A stretch of 64,000 bases of DNA from Candidatus Omnitrophota bacterium (GTDB lineage: Bacteria; Omnitrophota; Gorgyraeia; Zapsychrales; Zapsychraceae). Shown here piece after piece: positions 18,112-62,530 of this stretch. The stretch spans positions 166,320-230,319 of the forward strand of contig JAJDCB010000026.1 of assembly GCA_029261065.1 (NCBI GenBank). Reading direction: 5' to 3'. Position 1 is the stretch's first letter; each line of letters starts with the position of its first letter. The notes under the pieces are model-generated. The model had not been told where the DNA came from, ran no database searches, and saw nothing but the letters and a program-made list of their open reading frames with translations. Made by a program: the position numbers and the translations under genes.

Positions 18112-18125
18112 GAAGATTATTTTGA

Positions 18126-18147
18126 GGTCCCCGCTTTCGCGGGGATC
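18126..18147. repeat. REP-like GC-rich hairpin (variant CCCCGC-TTTC-GCGGGG)
   Basis: GGTCCCCGCTTTCGCGGGGATC sits between the two permease genes. It belongs to the TCCCGC-N4-GCGGGA family. Confidence 0.55.
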
Positions 18148-18166
18148 AATTAAGAGTGTTATTATT

Positions 18167-26194: not shown

Positions 26195-28090
26195 ATGAAT
26201 CAGAGATATAATACTATTATTATTGGTGGCGGCCATGCAGGTGTTGAAGCCGCCTTAGCAGCCGCACGTATGGGGGTTAAGACCCTTATGGTGACCTTTT
26301 ATGCCGATACCATTGGCCAAATGAGCTGTAATCCAGCTATTGGCGGTGTTGGGAAGGGGCAGTTGGTTAAGGAAATTGATGCTCTTGGAGGTGAGATGGG
26401 GCTTGCGGCTGATCGTAGCGCTATTCAATTTCGCCAATTGAACACCTCCAAAGGACAAGCCGTTCGTTCCTCCCGATGTCAGTCTGATCGAAAACAATAT
26501 AAGCTTTATATTCAGGGTGTTGTTTCCAAGCAAGAGAATCTTACCGTATTAGAAGATAAGGTCAGTGATTTGTTGGTTAAGGGCGGACAGGTACTAGGTG
26601 TTAAAACCGAAAAAGGTTTAACAATAGATTGTCAAAACGTTGTAATCACCACAGGTACTTTTTTAAGAGGGCGCATTCATATAGGGCGAGAAATCACGCA
26701 GGGTGGAAGAATTGGTGAGCCAAACTCCATTTCGCTTGCTGATAGTATTGAAGCTTTAGGTTTTGAAGTGTTGCTCTTTAAAACAGGAACGCCTCCAAGA
26801 CTTGATGGGAAGACCATCGACTTCTCAAAATGTATCCCTCAATATTCTGATAATCTTCCCATACCATTTTCTTTTCGTACAACAGAGATTCCAAGTGATC
26901 AAAAATTATTGCCCTGTCACATTACGCATACAAATGAAAAGACACATCAAATTATTCAAGACAATATGGATTTGTCTCCGATGTATTCCGGCCAGATGAG
27001 TGCGACAGGTGTTCGCTATTGTCCGTCCATTGAAGATAAGTTAAAGAAATTTGGTGATAAGTTGCAGCACAACATTTTTTTAGAACCAGAAGGTCTTGAT
27101 ACGGATGAATATTACCCTAATGGCATTTCAACAGGTTTGCCTTTAGACGTTCAGGAGCAGTTCGTTCGTTCCGTTAAAGGATTAGAAAATGTAGTGATTG
27201 TTCGTCCGGGATATTCGATTGAACACGGTGTTATTCCACCGACGGAATTAACACCTTATCTAGAGACTAAAAAGGTAAAAGGTTTATTTTTAGCTGGACA
27301 AATTAATGGAACGACTGGATACGAAGAAGCTGGCGCACAAGGGTTGATGGCAGGTATTAATGCAGCATTGCAAGTTCAAAACAAAGAGCCATTTGTTTTA
27401 GGACGTAATGAATCTTACATTGGTGTTCTTATTGACGACTTAACGACAAAGGGAACGGAAGAACCTTACCGGATGTTTACCTCACGTGTTGAGTATCGTT
27501 TAATTGTTCGTGAAGATAATGCAGATAATAGATTGAGTCATTATGGGCACCAATTTGGTTTGTTATCTGATGAAGAGTTTGCAAGAGTACAAAAAAAATA
27601 TGAAGTTATCTCAGAAGAGATTCAACATTTACGTGAGACAAGAGTATATCCGGGAGAAGCGATTGATAGTGAACTAAGGAAGAGAAATAGTGCGCCCCTT
27701 AAACAACCGACATTGTTAAGTGATTTATTAAAGAGGCCGGAGGTTGATTATCAACTCATTGCTCCTTTTGATGGAGATTTAAAGAAGTATCCCAAGGTTA
27801 TGATTGATCAGGTTGAATATGAAATCAAATATGAAGGGTTTATTGCTAGACAAAAAAAAGATGTTGCGCGGTTTAGACATATTGAGAATATTAAAATTCC
27901 TGCTAATATCAATTATGATGAAGTGCCAAGTCTTTCTATTGAAATTCGTCAAAAGTTAAAACGTTTTACTCCACTTAATCTCGGCCAAGCCAATAGAATT
28001 TCAGGCGTCACACCGGCCGCGATTTCCATTTTGATGGTTTATTTAAAGAAATTTTTAACAAACTCTAGGTCCTCGCTTTTGCGGGGATGA
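26195..28090 (+). CDS. mnmG: tRNA uridine 5-carboxymethylaminomethyl modification enzyme MnmG (GidA)
   Basis: FAD-binding [10 protein letters not shown] motif. 631 aa. Sequence is MnmG-like throughout. Confidence 0.9.
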
Positions 28091-28140
28091 CAATATTAAT
28101 ATTTATATTAAGCGTGTCGTCCCCACGTATGTGGGGATCT
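28070..28140. repeat. Two REP-like GC-rich hairpins between mnmG and cysK
   Basis: CCTCGC-TTTT-GCGGGG overlaps the mnmG stop. GTCGTCCCCAC-GTAT-GTGGGGA follows it. The GTCGTCCCC prefix is shared with the copies at 42681 and 48170. Confidence 0.5.
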
Positions 28141-28161
28141 CATAATGGAGAAAGTAATATT

Positions 28162-29101: not shown

Positions 29102-29191
29102 GATCCCCGTTTTCACGGGGATTACAAGGTTTCTATTAATACTAAGCATGTCATTCCCACCCCTTATGTCATTCCCGCGAAAGCGGGAATC
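29102..29191. repeat. REP-like repeat cluster (two hairpins)
   Basis: CCCCGT-TTTC-ACGGGG followed by CCCCTTATGTCATTCCCGCGAAAGCGGGAATC. The second matches 42690-42720 almost exactly. Confidence 0.55.
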
Positions 29192-29199
29192 AAATAATA

Positions 29200-29922
29200 A
29201 TGAAAAAAGAAACCATACTAAATTCTTTTAAATTCCTCAGCCTCATCGCCATCCTCACAGGCTGCTGGTGGCTTGGGCGAGAACTGGATATTGATTTTGA
29301 ACATTATCGAGAGATGTTCAAGCAGTATCCTGTTTTTATTTCGGGTCTTATTTTTATAGGTCTTTATAGTGCGATTACTTTAGTCGTTTGGTTTGTCGCC
29401 AAAGATGTTTTTCGTATTATGGCAGCTGTCCTTTATGGACCCCTGACAAGTACGATTATTATTTGGTTGGCTGAGTTACTTAATGCATTTATTCTTTTTC
29501 ATTTAAGTCGTTTATTAGGTCGAGAGTTTGTTCAACAACGTTTTAAGGTGCGTTCAAAAGATATTGATCATGTGAAAAAAGATACATCCTTTTGGTGGAT
29601 CTTGGCATTAAAGATTAATCCGCTGTTTCCATTTCGTTTGCTTGATTTAGGCTTCGGCTTATCCTCAGCATCCTTCTTAAAATATTTCACAATTTCTGCG
29701 ATCTTTACTCCCTTTCGCATTTATTGGCTGCAGTTTGTATTAGCAGGTGTAGGAGGAGAGATTTTAAAAGATATCAACTTCGTAAGAGATTTCTTAGTCG
29801 ACAATCCCTTTATTATTATTTACAGTGTGATTTATTTTTTGAGCGTATTTGTGTTAACAATTATTGCATTTACAGTACAATCTCAAAAAAGAAAAGACGC
29901 GTCTTATGCGGGACGAGTTTAA
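29200..29922 (+). CDS. TVP38/TMEM64 (DedA-related) family membrane protein
   Basis: Polytopic membrane protein. The pattern ...PLTSTIIIWLAELLNAFILFHLSRLLGREF... resembles the SNARE-associated / TVP38 family. Confidence 0.4.
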   Translation: MKKETILNSFKFLSLIAILTGCWWLGRELDIDFEHYREMFKQYPVFISGLIFIGLYSAITLVVWFVAKDVFRIMAAVLYGPLTSTIIIWLAELLNAFILFHLSRLLGREFVQQRFKVRSKDIDHVKKDTSFWWILALKINPLFPFRLLDLGFGLSSASFLKYFTISAIFTPFRIYWLQFVLAGVGGEILKDINFVRDFLVDNPFIIIYSVIYFLSVFVLTIIAFTVQSQKRKDASYAGRV

Positions 29923-29930
29923 AAGAAAGG

Positions 29931-30235
29931 CTCTTTAAAGTATTAAGTGGGTAAGTTAAGGCTAAAACATGTTGTCACGCGCAGTTCCGAAGCCGACAGC
30001 TTACCAATAATTGATGGTCAAGTCATATGATCATTCGCTCGGACAGTCCTCGCAGCGCATTTTTCTAAAAATTGCTTGCTGCGGAACTCGCTCTTATGAT
30101 CATATGACTTGACCATCAACAGAAAAGCTGAGAAATAAGCAATACAGTTCGTTTGCTTATTTCTTGTCGAGCGAAGGCTGTTTGAGCATGACAACATGTT
30201 TTAGCCTTAACTTACCCACGTGATTCTCCAAAGAG
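29931..30235. mobile_element. MITE-like non-coding element, copy 1 (~305 bp)
   Basis: Terminal inverted repeats CTCTTT..GTGGGTAAGTTAAGGCTAAAACATGTTGTCA (31 bp perfect). Internal 18-bp-arm hairpin GGTCAAGTCATATGATCA...TGATCATATGACTTGACC. No ORF. Homologous in inverted orientation to the element at 59300-59620. Confidence 0.55.
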
Positions 30236-31270: not shown

Positions 31271-31276
31271 ATGTTT

Positions 31277-31357
31277 GTCATTCCCGAGACATCGGGGACC
31301 CGTGAAGTTATTGTTAGAATTTTTTTATGTATAGGTTCCCGCTTTCGCGGGAATGAC
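31277..31357. repeat. REP-like hairpins between thiH and thiG
   Basis: GTCATTCCCGAGACATCGGGGAC and GGTTCCCGCTTTCGCGGGAATGAC. The second is the reverse-orientation form of GTCATTCCCGCGAAAGCGGGAAT. Confidence 0.55.
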
Positions 31358-31383
31358 ATGTTTTGGTTGTGTATGTCTTTGTG

Positions 31384-42652: not shown

Positions 42653-42680
42653 CGGTATGTTTTTTTACAATAATGGTAAT

Positions 42681-42899
42681 GTCGTCCCCGCCCCTTATGT
42701 CATTCCCGCGAAAGCGGGAATACTATGGGATAAACTCTAGTGGAATCACAAAATAGTTATAACTATAAATAGATTCCCGATTCCTCGGGAATGACAGGTA
42801 CGTGTTTTTCCCGTGATTACGCTTTTGTGCAACTCGGGAATGACAGGTACGTGTCTTTCCCGTGATTACGTTTTTGTGCAACTCGGGAATGACACGTAT
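42681..42899. repeat. Composite REP-like repeat cluster with 49-bp tandem direct repeats
   Basis: GTCGTCCCCGCCCCTTATGTCATTCCCGCGAAAGCGGGAAT. Then TTCCCGATTCCTCGGGAA. Then 2.3 tandem copies of the 49-bp unit CTCGGGAATGACAGGTACGTGTYTTTCCCGTGATTACGYTTTTGTGCAA (42784-42900). Confidence 0.6.
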
Positions 42900-42913: not shown

Positions 42914-44146
42914 ATGGACATCAAACTCAAACTAAAATCCCTCCCCCTAACCAGCGGCGTTTACTTGATGAAAGATAAGAAGGGGAAGGTCATCTACGTT
43001 GGTAAGGCCGTGTCGTTGCGTAAACGTGTGCAGTCTTATTTTAGAAAAAAGCAGACGATGACTAAGACCGATTTGTTGGTCGCTGAAATTGCAGACATTG
43101 ATTACATCGAGACCGCAAGTGAGGCGGGCGCTCTTTTATTAGAAGCGAGTTTAATTAAGAAATATAAAACAAAGTACAACATTGAACTGCGTGATGATAA
43201 GAGTTATCCCTACATTGAGGTGACGGGCGAGAAGTTTCCTCGTATTTCTGTCGAACGGCCCAATGAGAAGAAAAAGAGTTCCACGTATTATGGTCCGTAT
43301 GTTAGTGTTGGTTTAGTCCGTGAGGCGTTAAGTTTATTAAGAAAAATCTTTCATTTTCGCACCTGTGATCCTTTTCCTAAAAAAGAATGCCTCGATTTTC
43401 ATATTGGTTTATGCGAAGCTCCCTGCATAGGAAAGATTTCAAAAACAGAGTACTTAAAAAATGTTAAACATGTGCGTTTCATTCTTGAAGGCAAGCGTGA
43501 TCAGTTGTATAAGAATCTCAAAAAAGAAATGGATACCCACTCTCAACGTCAAGAATATGAACAAGCTGCCAAAGTGCGCGATCAGTTAAGAGCGATTGGG
43601 GCGTTGTATTCGGGAACGACGAATATCAATTATTTTAAAGAAGCTGAACAGTTGCAGCGAGCTTTGGGTTTAGAGCGATTGCCTGAACGTATGGAGGCCT
43701 TTGATATTTCTAATATTATGGGAAATCAAGCCGTGGGCTCTATGGTTTCTTTTTTTCATGGCAAACCAGATAAGCGAAATTATCGGCGCTTTCGTATTAA
43801 GGATGTTGAGGGAATAGATGATTTTAAAATGATTGGAGAAGTCGTTCGCCGCAGATACACGAGACTTAAAAAGGAGGGGGCCGCTTATCCTGATTTAATT
43901 ATCATTGATGGAGGAAAGGGGCAATTATCAAGTGCTTGTGAGGAGTTAAAAAAAATCGATGTTGTCATTCCTATTATTTCGTTAGCTAAAAGAGAAGAAG
44001 AGGTTTTTTTTCCGTATAAAAGAAGTTCAGTTCGACTTTCTCATGAGTCTTTGGGGCTTAATCTTTTGCGAAGAATCCGTGATGAAGCGCACCGTTTTGC
44101 CATAACATATCATCGACTTTTGCGTTCTAAGGCATTTTTGAAATGA
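42914..44146 (+). CDS. uvrC: UvrC-like excinuclease (GIY-YIG, UVR and RNase H-like endonuclease domains; no C-terminal HhH)
   Basis: GIY-YIG N-terminus (GVYLMKDKKGKVIYVGKA). UVR motif (QEYEQAAKVRDQLRAI). Endonuclease domain (FDISN…IIIDGGKGQ). 410 aa. Confidence 0.7.
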   Translation: MDIKLKLKSLPLTSGVYLMKDKKGKVIYVGKAVSLRKRVQSYFRKKQTMTKTDLLVAEIADIDYIETASEAGALLLEASLIKKYKTKYNIELRDDKSYPYIEVTGEKFPRISVERPNEKKKSSTYYGPYVSVGLVREALSLLRKIFHFRTCDPFPKKECLDFHIGLCEAPCIGKISKTEYLKNVKHVRFILEGKRDQLYKNLKKEMDTHSQRQEYEQAAKVRDQLRAIGALYSGTTNINYFKEAEQLQRALGLERLPERMEAFDISNIMGNQAVGSMVSFFHGKPDKRNYRRFRIKDVEGIDDFKMIGEVVRRRYTRLKKEGAAYPDLIIIDGGKGQLSSACEELKKIDVVIPIISLAKREEEVFFPYKRSSVRLSHESLGLNLLRRIRDEAHRFAITYHRLLRSKAFLK

Positions 44147-46886: not shown

Positions 46887-47988
46887 ATGGTTGATGATAT
46901 AAAAAAAATATTAGGTGATATTGAGGGAAAATTGAAGCACCTAAGGGGGTTTCTTTGACTTATCCGCTAAGGAAGAGTCAATTAAGGTTATACAAGAGAA
47001 GATGAATCAGCCCCATTTTTGGGATGATCAGGCCGGTTCTAATAAGTTGATGAAGGAATTGAAATATTTAAAGGGTTGTGTTGAGCCGTTTGATCAGAGT
47101 TTAAAGAAGTGTGAAGATTTAAAAGAGTTGCTTGAAATTTCTGTTGATGATCAAGAGATGCTTGATCAAATTAGTCTGGAACTTAAAGCATTAGAAAAAG
47201 ATGTTAATGCCACCGAAATACAAAGTATTTTGGGAGGCCCTTTTGATAGAAGTAATGTGATCTTTAGTATAAATGCTGGTGCCGGTGGAACAGAGTCCTG
47301 TGATTGGGCGAATATGTTATTAAGGATGTATACGCGATTTGCTGAGAAGCAAAACTATACACTTAAAACTATTGATATTCTTCCAGGGGAGGAGGCAGGC
47401 ATTAAGAATGTGACGCTTAGCATGGAAGGTGAGATGGCGTATGGTAAGCTCAAGAGTGAAAAAGGCGTTCACCGATTGGTGCGCATTTCTCCTTTTGATT
47501 CGAATAAACGTCGGCACACATCTTTTGTTTCCATTGATGTGATTCCAGAAATTGAAGAAGATGTTGATGTGGACATTAATCAAGAAGATTTACGCATTGA
47601 TATTTTTCGCTCATCAGGTCCAGGTGGGCAAAGCGTTAACACAACAGATTCAGCTGTAAGAATTACGCATATACCGACTGGTATCGTTGCTCAATGTCAG
47701 AATGAACGATCGCAATTGCAGAACAAACAAACCGCCATGCGTATTGTTCGGGCGCGTTTGTATGATCTAAAAATGCAAGAGCAAAACGAAAAGTTGGCTC
47801 AGGAGTACGGCCAAAAACAAAAGATTGAGTGGGGAAGCCAAATTCGTTCTTACGTCATGCATCCCTATTCAATGGTCAAAGATCATAGAACAAATGTAGA
47901 AACAGGTAATGTTCCTGCTGTGATGGATGGGGAGCTTACTTTATTTATAGAGGCTTATCTACGGATGAAGCCGGATGAGAAGGGGTAG
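46887..47988 (+). CDS. prfB: Peptide chain release factor 2 with programmed +1 frameshift
   Basis: Frame 0 reads MVDDIKKILGDIEGKLKHLRGFL and stops at TGA 46956-46958, inside AGGGGGTTTCTT TGA C (SD-like, then CTT_TGA_C). The +1 frame continues DLSAKEESI… with SPF and GGQ motifs to 47988. Confidence 0.85.
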
Positions 47989-48169
47989 TGGCGAATTTAA
48001 GGTTGAAACATTGGGGCGATTAAACCTTTTGTGCTATGATTCGCCATCGTTGTCAAAAATTGATATCTTCACTCACACTCACCCCTCCTTCAGGTCGGGG
48101 TTCAAGTTCGCTTAGATAACAATTTTAGACCGGTGACAATTGGTTGAGCTAAGTTGGAAAAGTAATAGT

Positions 48170-48267
48170 ATCGTCCCCGGCTCATCTGTCATTCCCGCGG
48201 AAGCGGGAATCCATGGGGTGAACATCTCATAATAGTATTAATAGGTTCCCGCTTCCGCGGGAATGAC
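48170..48267. repeat. REP-like repeat cluster between prfB and secA
   Basis: ATCGTCCCCGGCTCATCTGTCATTCCCGCGGAAGCGGGAATCC ... GGTTCCCGCTTCCGCGGGAATGAC. Two inverted copies of the core. Confidence 0.55.
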
Positions 48268-51588: not shown

Positions 51589-53166
51589 TTGATTATGCGA
51601 ATAGAAAAGAAAGTCACTAGAGCGTTTTTTTTGATTCTTGTACTCATTGTCTTCTGTCTGGGCTTGACTCATACAACAAAGGCAAATGAGTATGATTTGG
51701 AAAATAACTCTTCAGAAGAACTCACAGCTAAAGCCTGGGCCGCTCTCAAAGAAAGAGACGTTGAAGCTGTGTTAGTTTATACAAATGAATGTATAAATTT
51801 GTATGCCGGTCGTGCTAAGAGAATGCAGGCTGAGTTAGAAAGTTATCCAACGGGTTCTAATGATGACGTTCATCAATATTGGGCTATCAACGATGTAGCC
51901 ACTTCATTATACATTCAGGCGGAGGCTTTTCGTGAAGTGAACATGATGGAGGAAGCCACAGAAGTCTACATTAAAATAATAAACGATTATAGTTTTGGCC
52001 AGACATGGGATCCAAGGGGCTGGTTTTGGAAGCCGGCTGAAGCCGCACAGGATAGGTTAGACGTTATTGAGTCGGGTAAGAATATAGATTTTGGGAATTA
52101 TTCTTCGGAGTTCTTGACGACGCAAGCATGGAATGCCTTAAATACTGGCGATCTTGACTCGGTCGATGACTACGCAGATAAGGTGATTAGCTTATATGCT
52201 GAGAAAGCTAAGGAGATGCAAAATTTTTTGGAAGACTATCCTTTGGGGTCAAATGAGGACATTCATCTTTTTTCAGCGCTCAATGATGTCGGAACTGTTT
52301 ATTTTATTAAAGCGCAAGCGCAAGAGAAAAAAGATGATAAAGATGGGGCTATCTATTATTATAAAAAAATAATTAACAGTTATTCTTACTCCCAGTGTTG
52401 GAATCCAGAAGGCTGGTTTTGGAAGCCGGCTGAAGGCGCGAAGGACAGAATACATATTATTAGGTCGGGTAAGAATATAGATTTCGGGAATTATTCTTCG
52501 GAATTTTTGACAACGCAAGCATGGAAGGCTTTAAATGCTGGAGACTTTGAGTCGGTCAATGACTATGCAGATAAGGTGATTAGTTTATATGCCGATAAAG
52601 CCAAAGAAATGCAAGACGCATTGAGCGGGTATCCCTGGGAGTCAAATGCAATTATTCATTCCCACTGGGCGTTGAATGATGTAGGCACCGTTTATTTTAT
52701 AAAGGGAGAAGCGGAAAGGAAGGCGGGCAACAATAAAAGAGCTATTAACTATTATGAAAAGGTTGTTAGTAATTTTTATTTCTCACAGTGCTGGGATCCA
52801 GAAGATTGGTTTTGGAAGCCGGCTGATGCAGCTCAACAGGCTTTAGATGAACTAGAAGATGAAGCGCAGAAGGCTAAAAAATACGCTCATATGAAAAGTT
52901 CAAAAAGAATCGGTGCTGATACGAAAAATATTACGGATAATAAGTTAGGCGTTGAAGGTGGTTTAGTCGTTTCTAATATGACTTATGGGAGTAAAAGTCC
53001 AATGATTGGAAGTATAGAGAATAGTGAAGTCATTTTTAACAATCAGAGTGAAAGTGAAGATGAAAATAAAGACAGTGTATGGGGAAAACTTTGGTGGAAA
53101 GTTATCATTCCAATATCAATATCGGTGATAGCAGCGGCATTAATTTTAAAATTCGTAAAGAAATAA
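51589..53166 (+). CDS. Secreted, C-terminally membrane-anchored protein made of three GWFWKPAEAA repeats
   Basis: Signal peptide. Three ~135-aa repeats each ending Q.WDP.GWFWKPAE[AG]A. Ser/Asn-rich linker. C-terminal TM helix (VIIPISISVIAAALIL). Confidence 0.5.
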   Translation: MIMRIEKKVTRAFFLILVLIVFCLGLTHTTKANEYDLENNSSEELTAKAWAALKERDVEAVLVYTNECINLYAGRAKRMQAELESYPTGSNDDVHQYWAINDVATSLYIQAEAFREVNMMEEATEVYIKIINDYSFGQTWDPRGWFWKPAEAAQDRLDVIESGKNIDFGNYSSEFLTTQAWNALNTGDLDSVDDYADKVISLYAEKAKEMQNFLEDYPLGSNEDIHLFSALNDVGTVYFIKAQAQEKKDDKDGAIYYYKKIINSYSYSQCWNPEGWFWKPAEGAKDRIHIIRSGKNIDFGNYSSEFLTTQAWKALNAGDFESVNDYADKVISLYADKAKEMQDALSGYPWESNAIIHSHWALNDVGTVYFIKGEAERKAGNNKRAINYYEKVVSNFYFSQCWDPEDWFWKPADAAQQALDELEDEAQKAKKYAHMKSSKRIGADTKNITDNKLGVEGGLVVSNMTYGSKSPMIGSIENSEVIFNNQSESEDENKDSVWGKLWWKVIIPISISVIAAALILKFVKK

Positions 53167-57086: not shown

Positions 57087-57121
57087 TAATTTTTAGCGGT
57101 AGAATAACTAAGGTACAAGAT

Positions 57122-57140
57122 ATCCCGCCTTTTGCGGGAC
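57122..57140. repeat. REP-like hairpin (diverged copy)
   Basis: ATCCCGCC-TTTT-GCGGGAC. Confidence 0.4.
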
Positions 57141-57257
57141 CGCGGCAAGTTACAAAAAAGAAACAATAACCAATGACTAAAACACCAAACGTTAGGTTTC
57201 TAAGTAGTTGATTTTTAATCGTTTTTGTAGTTTTTACCTTTTATTGGAGAAGTCAAA

Positions 57258-57443: not shown

Positions 57444-57552
57444 TTGGATTAAGTTAGAATTTATTGTTTAATACACCAAAAGAATTATCAATGGTTAAAA
57501 AAGTTAAGCGTTTGGTCATTTTATTATTGGGTATTGGTTATTTTTTGCCTTG

Positions 57553-57572
57553 GTCCCGCCAGAGGCGGGATA
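57553..57572. repeat. REP-like hairpin (diverged copy)
   Basis: GTCCCGCC-AGAG-GCGGGATA. Confidence 0.4.
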
Positions 57573-57629
57573 TCTTGTCTCTTGTACCTTGGTTATTCTT
57601 GCGTCAATAAATACCTTTAAAGGACAATC

Positions 57630-59299: not shown

Positions 59300-59620
59300 T
59301 TGAAGTATTAAGTGGGTAACTTCAGAGGCCAAATAATATTGTCATGCTCAAATAAATAGCGTTTAGCTATTTTTTTGAGTGCTCAAACAACCTTCGCTCG
59401 ATAGGAAATAAGCAATAATAAAAGTTGTTTTGCTTATTTCCCTAGCTTTTTCTAAAATTAAGGGTCAAGGCCATATGATCACAAGAGCGAGTTCGTCGCA
59501 AAGCGACGTTGTCTGAGCGAATGATCATATGGCCTTGACCCTTAATTGATTGTAAGCTAGCGGCTTCGGAACTGCGCGTGACAACATTATTTAGCCTCTG
59601 AAGCTACCCACTTAAATTTC
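59300..59620. mobile_element. MITE-like non-coding element, copy 2 (~320 bp, inverted relative to copy 1)
   Basis: Terminal inverted repeats ATTAAGTGGGTAACTTCAGAGGCCAAATAATATTGTCATGC / reverse complement. Internal 20-bp-arm hairpin GGGTCAAGGCCATATGATCA...TGATCATATGGCCTTGACCC. Internal segments align with the reverse complement of 29931-30235. Confidence 0.55.
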
Positions 59621-62390: not shown

Positions 62391-62530
62391 GCGAATCTAG
62401 GCGAATCACGCAAATTAAGTGTAAAGCGATATGATCATTCGCTCAGACAAACTCCCTTCGGTCGTAACTCGCTCGGTGATCATATCGCTTTACACTTAAC
62501 GGAAGAGTCGGCGAAGAGAGAATGTATCTT
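62391..62530. mobile_element. Solo hairpin module of the MITE family (copy 3)
   Basis: Perfect 21-bp arms AAGTGTAAAGCGATATGATCA...TGATCATATCGCTTTACACTT (62417-62507). Shares the ATATGATCATTCGCTCRGAC core with copies 1 and 2. Confidence 0.45.

Follow-up and report, generated by a model that had tools for sequence, protein, structure and literature searches.

The window, i.e., the whole 64-kb stretch of Omnitrophota DNA that was analyzed, has a composition of ~38% GC and a GC skew that is positive throughout. Between 18 and 48 kb, six junctions, all of them between co-directional genes, carry 11 full copies (28-30 nt) of an oriented hairpin unit, accompanied by half-units and one 49-nt tandem array. 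The genes concerned encode MnmG, CysK, ThiH, ThiG, MurJ, UvrC, RF2 (prfB), SecA and two ABC permeases, all of which had been named correctly in a first-pass annotation made from the sequence alone. A scan of the whole window against Rfam at gathering thresholds gave no match, and a tRNA scan of the window found none. Only one of the full units (18122) stands alone. The others form dimers: two of these are head-to-head (28064/28114 and 29098/29166), and in the other three (31275/31330, 42697/42768 and 48186/48240) the units lie tail-to-tail, with their heads pointing outward and 24-41 nt between them. The individual features are as follows (bit scores are those of the covariance model described below):

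18122-18151, minus strand: single unit with degenerate head (ATTG), ATCCCCGC-GAAA-GCGGGGAC, between two ABC-permease genes; 36.3 bits, DNA hairpin of -10.7 kcal/mol
28064-28093, minus strand: unit over the mnmG 3' end, left member of a head-to-head dimer; 38.6 bits
28114-28143, plus strand: unit TGTC-GTCCCCAC-GTAT-GTGGGGAT-C located 5' of cysK, right member of the head-to-head dimer; 36.2 bits
29098-29127, minus strand: unit immediately 3' of the cysK stop, with head TGTA, left member of a head-to-head dimer; 41.1 bits, DNA hairpin of -8.9 kcal/mol
29149-29160, plus strand: half-unit (head and left arm, TGTCATTCCCAC) ending 6 nt before the next full unit
29166-29195, plus strand: canonical unit TGTC-ATTCCCGC-GAAA-GCGGGAAT-CAA; 44.4 bits, 3 mismatches to the published NTS
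31275-31304, plus strand: diverged unit touching the thiH start codon, member of the thiG/thiH tail-to-tail dimer; 35.7 bits
31330-31359, minus strand: canonical unit, second member of the thiG/thiH tail-to-tail dimer; 46.6 bits
42680-42691, plus strand: half-unit TGTCGTCCCCGC, the outer left arm of a nested composite
42697-42726, plus strand: canonical unit, left member of the murJ/uvrC tail-to-tail dimer; 40.9 bits
42727-42749, plus strand: conserved extension GGGATAAACTCTAG and degenerate outer right arm (TGGAATCAC); 77 nt with 82% identity to locus L198
42768-42797, minus strand: unit TGTC-ATTCCCGA-GGAA-TCGGGAAT-CTAT, right member of the murJ/uvrC tail-to-tail dimer; 42.6 bits
42784-42898, minus strand: 49-nt tandem repeat in 2.3 copies; 95% matches by TRF
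48169-48180, plus strand: half-unit TATCGTCCCCGG
48186-48215, plus strand: unit whose loop is GGAA and whose tail is CCA, on the left side of the prfB/secA tail-to-tail dimer; 42.8 bits
48240-48269, minus strand: right member of the prfB/secA tail-to-tail dimer, the sole unit followed by a T-run in gene direction; 44.6 bits, terminator-like match

The last nine codons of mnmG and its TGA stop (28088-28090) fall within the unit at 28064-28093, and the MnmG profile match stops at residue 619 of 631.

The window also holds features outside this family. A second, unrelated family is MITE-like, with a length of ~305 nt and terminal inverted repeats of ~53 nt (AAGTATTAAGTGGGTAA...), and was found at 29931-30235 and 59308-59615; the two copies are in opposite orientation, share ~73% identity and have no Rfam match, the perfect palindrome inside them, around TGATCATATG, recurs by itself at 62413-62499, and the short-read contig L004 begins within the copy at 59.3-59.6 kb. 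UvrC (42914-44146) and its relatives in L212-L228 are only ~410 aa long; their alignment to the UvrC profile (574 positions) consists of two stretches in its first part, and they seem to lack the C-terminal portion. The GIY-YIG domain of UvrC, beside the largest cluster of units, was considered as a functional link and discarded, because relatives without the repeats share this 410-aa UvrC. The TPR-like gene at 51589-53166 contains in-frame tandem repeats of 393 nt (2.1 copies, 75% matches), and related segments occur in genes at about 19.4-22.5 kb. The prfB ORF (47002-47988) begins at position 12 of the PCRF profile, which is consistent with the usual programmed +1 frameshift and a short upstream ORF.

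Read from head to tail, the unit consists of TGTC, then ATTCCCGC, GAAA, GCGGGAAT and C(C/T)A: the head, (C/T)GTC, is unpaired, the stem ATTCCCGC has 8 bp, the loop has 4 nt, and C is the first base of the tail. Oligonucleotide forms of the unit are TGTCATTCCCGCGAAAGCGGGAATC and TGTCATTCCCGCGAAAGCGGGAATCCA. The head is TGTC in nine of the 11 units, TGTA and TTGA in one each and CGTC in none; GTC precedes the stem in nine units, C follows it in ten, and the tails are CCA, CTA, CAA or CTC. All 11 units have a loop of 4 nt and a T-A second stem pair, the first pair being A-T (5), G-T (1) or A·C (5). Across the 11-unit alignment 93% of the stem cells pair. Three of the eight pairs are changed on both sides (T-A to C-G at pair 3, G-C to A-T at pair 7, and C-G to A-T or T-A at pair 8), with a covariation score that was reached by none of 500 shuffles; the hairpin is maintained by compensatory changes. 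Folds of the units as single-stranded DNA range from -4.1 to -10.7 kcal/mol. Conservation is not confined to the stem but is just as high at T2, G3 and T4 of the unpaired head and at C26, where the tail begins.

A covariance model (R1) was built from the alignment of the 11 oriented units and searched against the whole window with filters off. It returned exactly the 11 aligned units, at 35.7-46.6 bits, followed by a match of 19 bits on the reverse strand of one of them, so that the family is strand-oriented (≥35.7 bits for every unit in its own direction, ≤19 bits in the opposite one). The form TCCCGC-N4-GCGGGA, by which the first-pass annotation had defined the repeats, has five matches in the 64-kb window versus none in 100 shuffles, and ATTCCC-N8-GGGAAT has four exact matches versus none in shuffles. 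By these pattern searches within the window, the family is genuine and its copies far exceed what chance would give. Two short-read contigs from SRR15505515 terminate within units, as is expected of a multi-copy sequence. The 7 kb past the right end of the window contain no units.

Six of the eight sites listed in the first-pass annotation correspond to the six junctions at 18-48 kb. The literal form occurs at 29173, 31337, 42704, 48193 and 48247, i.e., at four junctions only; it is lacking at 18126, 28070, 29102 and 31277, which nevertheless belong to the family as diverged units (35.7-41.1 bits) with stems such as CCCCGC..GCGGGG, CCCCGT..ACGGGG and TCCCGA..TCGGGG. The unit at 28114-28143 was absent from that list. 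The two remaining sites, 57122 and 57553 (TCCCGCC-N3/5-GGCGGGA), have neither head nor tail, were not found by the model at E≤10, and are not members. They lie in a separate structure, a 60-nt inverted repeat (57110-57169 and 57524-57583, 75% complementary) of which each arm carries the GC hairpin TCCCGCC..GGCGGGA; the 354 nt between the arms hold a small hydrophobic ORF. The long composites said to be shared between sites were recovered by a repeat finder among 29146-29207, 42677-42738 and 48166-48227, together with the inverted 24-nt match (31336-31359 versus 42697-42720, 100% complementary). An identical 24-mer is common to three units and a 31-mer to two.

At 29149, 42680 and 48169 a half-unit, consisting of head and left arm, precedes a full unit, and the half-unit-plus-unit arrangement of 29149-29195 recurs in other phyla. 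Every copy of the 49-nt tandem repeat holds a right arm and head (CTCGGGAATGACA at 42784, 42833 and 42882), so that 42784-42898 reads on the minus strand as two half-units upstream of a full unit. The module GGGATAAACTCTAG/TGGAATCAC is also found 3' of units in L198 (a Thermodesulfovibrionia MAG) and in L079. A nested, onion-like composite is present at 42680-42757, at 3515-3589 of L198 and at about 5960-6040 of L079, and is thus common to the window, the Thermodesulfovibrionia MAG and a 63%-GC contig of the viral set (L079). Its order is outer head and left arm, inner full unit, GGGATAAACTCCAG, outer right arm and tail, and in L198 the outer arms show a compensatory change (ATTCCTGC/GCAGGAAT). 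Four Atribacterota-type loci (L134, L163, L181 and L188) have two to three tandem half-units (cttatgtcattcccgcttc, period ~18-19 nt) in front of a full unit, and the corresponding right arms are absent downstream of these arrays. Nested insertion was considered as a general origin of half-units; it fits 42680-42757, L198 and L079, and was rejected as a general origin because the right arms are absent from the Atribacterota arrays.

The first-pass annotation had called the repeats REP/BIME-like, and the units indeed fall under the published definition of a CGTC-tagged REP family. CGTC-tagged REPs were defined by Di Nocera, De Gregorio & Rocco (2013, BMC Genomics 14:522; PMC3733652); in family 1 the stem is 8 bp long and begins with A-T pairs, the loop has 4 nt, the tail is CCA and the head has often become TGTC (CCTC also occurs), and its hosts are Neisseria, Rickettsia and many Alphaproteobacteria, with five phyla listed. 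The window units show the head (CGTC/TGTC) at one end, the AT-starting 8-bp stem with its 4-nt loop, the CCA-like tail, and the intergenic occurrence between co-directional genes as singletons and as both types of inverted dimer, with occasional overlap of gene ends and no transposase nearby. They differ in their host, as Omnitrophota is absent from the five phyla of that paper, in the ratio of tail-to-tail to head-to-head dimers (3 vs 2, the tail-to-tail type being called rare in the paper) and in the A·C first stem pair of five of the 11 units.

About half of the neisserial dRS3 copies are a 28-nt oriented NTS, CGTCATTCCCGCGMAVGCGGGAATCYRG (Chenal et al. 2025, Nat Commun 16:2388; PMC11893778). 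The same paper describes SsnA as a 94-aa single-domain GIY-YIG protein (cd10448) that binds to the NTS and cleaves immediately upstream, acts on single-stranded DNA only and on one strand only, and does not bind RNA; the C after the palindrome matters most for binding and the three bases before the palindrome for cutting. Repeats typically lie on both sides of the ssn gene. Without SsnA, transformation by NTS-bearing DNA rises about five-fold, an effect shown only in N. meningitidis, and 19% of the genomes with >200 SRMs are without an SsnA homologue (PMC11893778).

The window units share the core and the flanks of NTS/SRM, including the bases critical for SsnA, namely C for binding and GTC for cutting. 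The five best units have 3-4 mismatches to the NTS, all in the first base of the head, the loop or the tail, and the other six have 5-10. They differ from NTS/SRM in the head TGTC, in these 3-10 mismatches, which leave none of the 11 within the strict NTS limit of ≤1 mismatch, and in the lack of an ssn gene in the window. The SRM string HGTCWYN(0-2)YYVSBRHN(0-5)WNVSBRGN(0-2)RNCYNB, as taken from the text of the paper and strict on the tail, matches two of the 11 units (28065 and 31331) versus 0.06 expected.

A resemblance to neisserial dRS3 had been noted in the first-pass annotation and called formal. The match itself stands, with ATTCCC-N8-GGGAAT occurring four times, and the word understates it, since dRS3 is the palindromic core of the NTS/SRM family; a non-neisserial host is no contradiction, because that family is spread over many phyla. 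A possible further likeness to dRS3 and NIME is the mosaic-like appearance of 42680-42898, where other short repeats are interspersed with the units, among them the 49-nt tandem bounded by unit halves. The differences lie in the host, which is not Neisseria (~38% GC, four-gene synteny to an Omnitrophota MAG), and in the interleaved repeats, which were not seen by eye in Neisseria-like viral contigs.

The 20-mer core was found in >120 IMG/VR contigs of 40-70% GC, where its flanks are mostly cGTC and CCAG although they were not part of the query. A search of the species-representative genome set found the exact 28-mer CTTATGTCATTCCCGCGAAAGCGGGAAT in 86 stretches, which come from about a dozen phyla, with a chance expectation of ~2e-5 matches in 596 Gb. 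Its hosts are Atribacterota, Omnitrophota, several Patescibacteria, Planctomycetota, Chloroflexi, Rickettsia and other Alphaproteobacteria, Melainabacteria, Fibrobacter, Thermodesulfovibrionia and Gallionellales. Outside the 28-mer pattern, the conserved part in these other genomes is the tail C-[CT]-A only (84 copies). The 28-mer occurs many times in Rickettsia, and units can sit in coding sequence (mnmG 3' end), which recalls the Rickettsia palindromic elements. The latter are ~100-150 nt long and often lie in frame inside genes, whereas coding overlap in the window is limited to the mnmG 3' end.

Four loci (L035, L042, L186 (Atribacterota) and L202) contain an ORF of 92-97 aa flanked by units in the order unit(+) - gene - unit(-), with heads outward independent of the direction of the gene; in L094 a fifth ORF (102 aa) has a unit at only one of its ends. 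PF01541 GIY-YIG is the only match of each of these five small ORFs, and their nearest solved structures are, weakly, UPF0213 proteins. The three gene-less dimers of the window share the heads-outward geometry of these candidate ssn cassettes. In the window itself, a six-frame GIY-YIG motif scan and tblastn with three Ssn-like proteins (E≤1) found only UvrC, and no ssn gene was found in the 7 kb to its right (L004).

A MurJ scan yielded 19 metagenome loci as relatives (61-75% identity), with the same gene order (thiH-thiG, leuS, ..., murJ-uvrC-pilT-prfB-secA). The family model found one unit in the 167 kb of these 19 relatives versus 11 in the 64-kb window. The murJ-uvrC spacer measures -23 to +91 nt in the relatives (n=13) versus 261 nt in the window, and the prfB-secA spacer 1 to 309 nt (n=4) versus 309 nt; thiG and thiH overlap by 17 nt in the relatives (n=2) versus a 113-nt spacer with a tail-to-tail dimer in the window. 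Since murJ/uvrC and thiG/thiH of the relatives abut or overlap, and only one unit was found in their 167 kb, the units are lineage-specific insertions. By this comparison, they spread recently in this Omnitrophota lineage.

The units now supply gene ends, namely the mnmG stop codon and the sequence directly 5' of the thiH start. The thiG/thiH insert has TATGA at both gene ends and AACA beside the heads. Among the three tail-to-tail dimers no consistent target-site duplication was detected, short repeats being present at thiG/thiH only, and no consistent footprint of any transposition mechanism was found. Synteny with the Omnitrophota MAG JABDFL01 extends over four consecutive genes at 22.6-28.1 kb; MnmG has 70% identity to its counterpart there, versus 51% to that of a Planctomycetia MAG, and from this one locus an Omnitrophota host is probable. 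In an Omnitrophota MAG (L177, 7852-7905) mnmG also runs into a unit, of opposite orientation to that at 28055-28090 of the window, which suggests independent insertions at the same gene end.

On this evidence, the window units are probably copies of the CGTC-1 REP / NTS / SRM family that are still recognized by the product of an ssn gene located elsewhere in the host genome. In single-stranded DNA, as it arises in replication, repair or the uptake of transforming DNA, a unit would fold into its hairpin, and a small single-domain Ssn GIY-YIG nuclease would bind the hairpin with the following C and cut upstream at the head. By analogy with the mechanism published for other hosts, cutting would be limited to one strand and would limit transformation. 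The ssn gene would usually lie between two heads-outward units, and the gene-less tail-to-tail dimers would be non-autonomous, REPIN- or MITE-like derivatives; effects on co-transcribed mRNAs would be a side effect. The earlier proposal of sites for a DNA-binding protein comes close to this explanation by an Ssn GIY-YIG single-strand nuclease, insofar as the analogy holds. More tentatively, and with the odds rather against it, the gene-less tail-to-tail dimers may themselves be the transposing unit, i.e., Ssn cassettes without the gene; the filled junctions, including that at the 17-nt thiG/thiH overlap, would then be fresh insertions and the half-unit arrays possible footprints. Heads that point outward leave one cleavable site per strand, so a simple IS200-like excision does not explain such movement.

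The units could also belong to the same family and be orphan relics without a working Ssn, i.e., neutral or selfish leftovers, or copies spread by recombination or by another enzyme. We consider this unlikely. It agrees with the lack of ssn in the window and in the extra 7 kb on the right, with the SRM-rich genomes that have no SsnA homologue (19%, PMC11893778), with the divergence of six of the 11 units from the NTS (5-10 mismatches), and with the proposal that CGTC repeats are possibly heading for extinction (PMC3733652); however, the 24-mer identical in three units and the 31-mer identical in two suggest recent copying or constraint, head and tail positions beyond the stem are conserved, and the insertions postdate the divergence from relatives at 61-75% MurJ identity.

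That the units act at the RNA level, as intrinsic terminators, mRNA-stabilizing 3' structures or operon processing sites, is improbable. Every unit lies between co-directional genes that are probably co-transcribed, and the RNA of the murJ-uvrC spacer folds with -98.3 kcal/mol (z = -6.1). E. coli REPs stabilize the upstream mRNA and provide a precedent. Transcription termination, as proposed in the first-pass annotation, is not supported: a T-run in gene direction follows only one of the 11 units (48245-48264), two other matches lie on the opposite strand, and terminator-like sites show no enrichment relative to shuffles. A pure hairpin would not account for the conservation of the unpaired head and tail, for the strand specificity or for the 28-mer shared across phyla, the relatives run the same operons without such elements, and SsnA does not bind RNA (PMC11893778).

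Mobilization of classical REPs by a RAYT (IS200/IS605-type tyrosine transposase), a partner that had also been suggested earlier, can practically be dismissed: short palindromes in inverted dimers are REPIN-like, and RAYT genes are flanked by inverted REPs (PMC3733652), but the head is (C/T)GTC in TGTCATTCCC-type units and not GTAG, the window contains no Y1-transposase or IS200-like ORF, and for CGTC repeats the literature reports no associated transposase and, in a survey of CGTC-positive species, no RAYT flanked by them (PMC3733652). The likeness to a REPIN/RAYT 'REPtron' consists in a small nuclease gene between inverted hairpin repeats and in gene-less inverted dimers in intergenic DNA, whereas the enzyme is a GIY-YIG protein instead of an HUH/Y1 transposase and the head tag is GTC instead of GTAG; the genes found between units elsewhere are GIY-YIG only. 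Degenerate type I-E-like CRISPR repeats, which units such as GTCGTCCCCACGTATGTGGGGAT resemble, and attachment sites of an IS110-type or filamentous-phage recombinase, as for dRS3, are hardly credible, given singletons and inverted dimers without regular-spacer arrays, a sole tandem array with identical 'spacers', and no cas, integrase or IS110 gene in the window and no prophage abutting any unit.

The kind of element is thus already known; the modest value of this new member lies in the host range, the comparison of filled and empty sites, and the geometry shared by dimers and cassettes. A previously unannotated repeat of an uncultured, AT-rich bacterium is now placed in a family whose partner enzyme was identified in 2025, and for annotation it follows that these hairpins should not be labelled as terminators or CRISPR repeats. 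The 28-mer reaches lineages unmentioned in the cited literature, namely Omnitrophota, Atribacterota, Patescibacteria and others, and the filled versus empty junctions show that units recently entered even overlapping gene junctions and gene 3' ends. A REPIN-like origin is supported by the heads-outward geometry that gene-less dimers have in common with ssn cassettes. Should the dimers prove to be the transposing unit, this would give a handle on how CGTC repeats move without a transposase, a question that dates from 2013.
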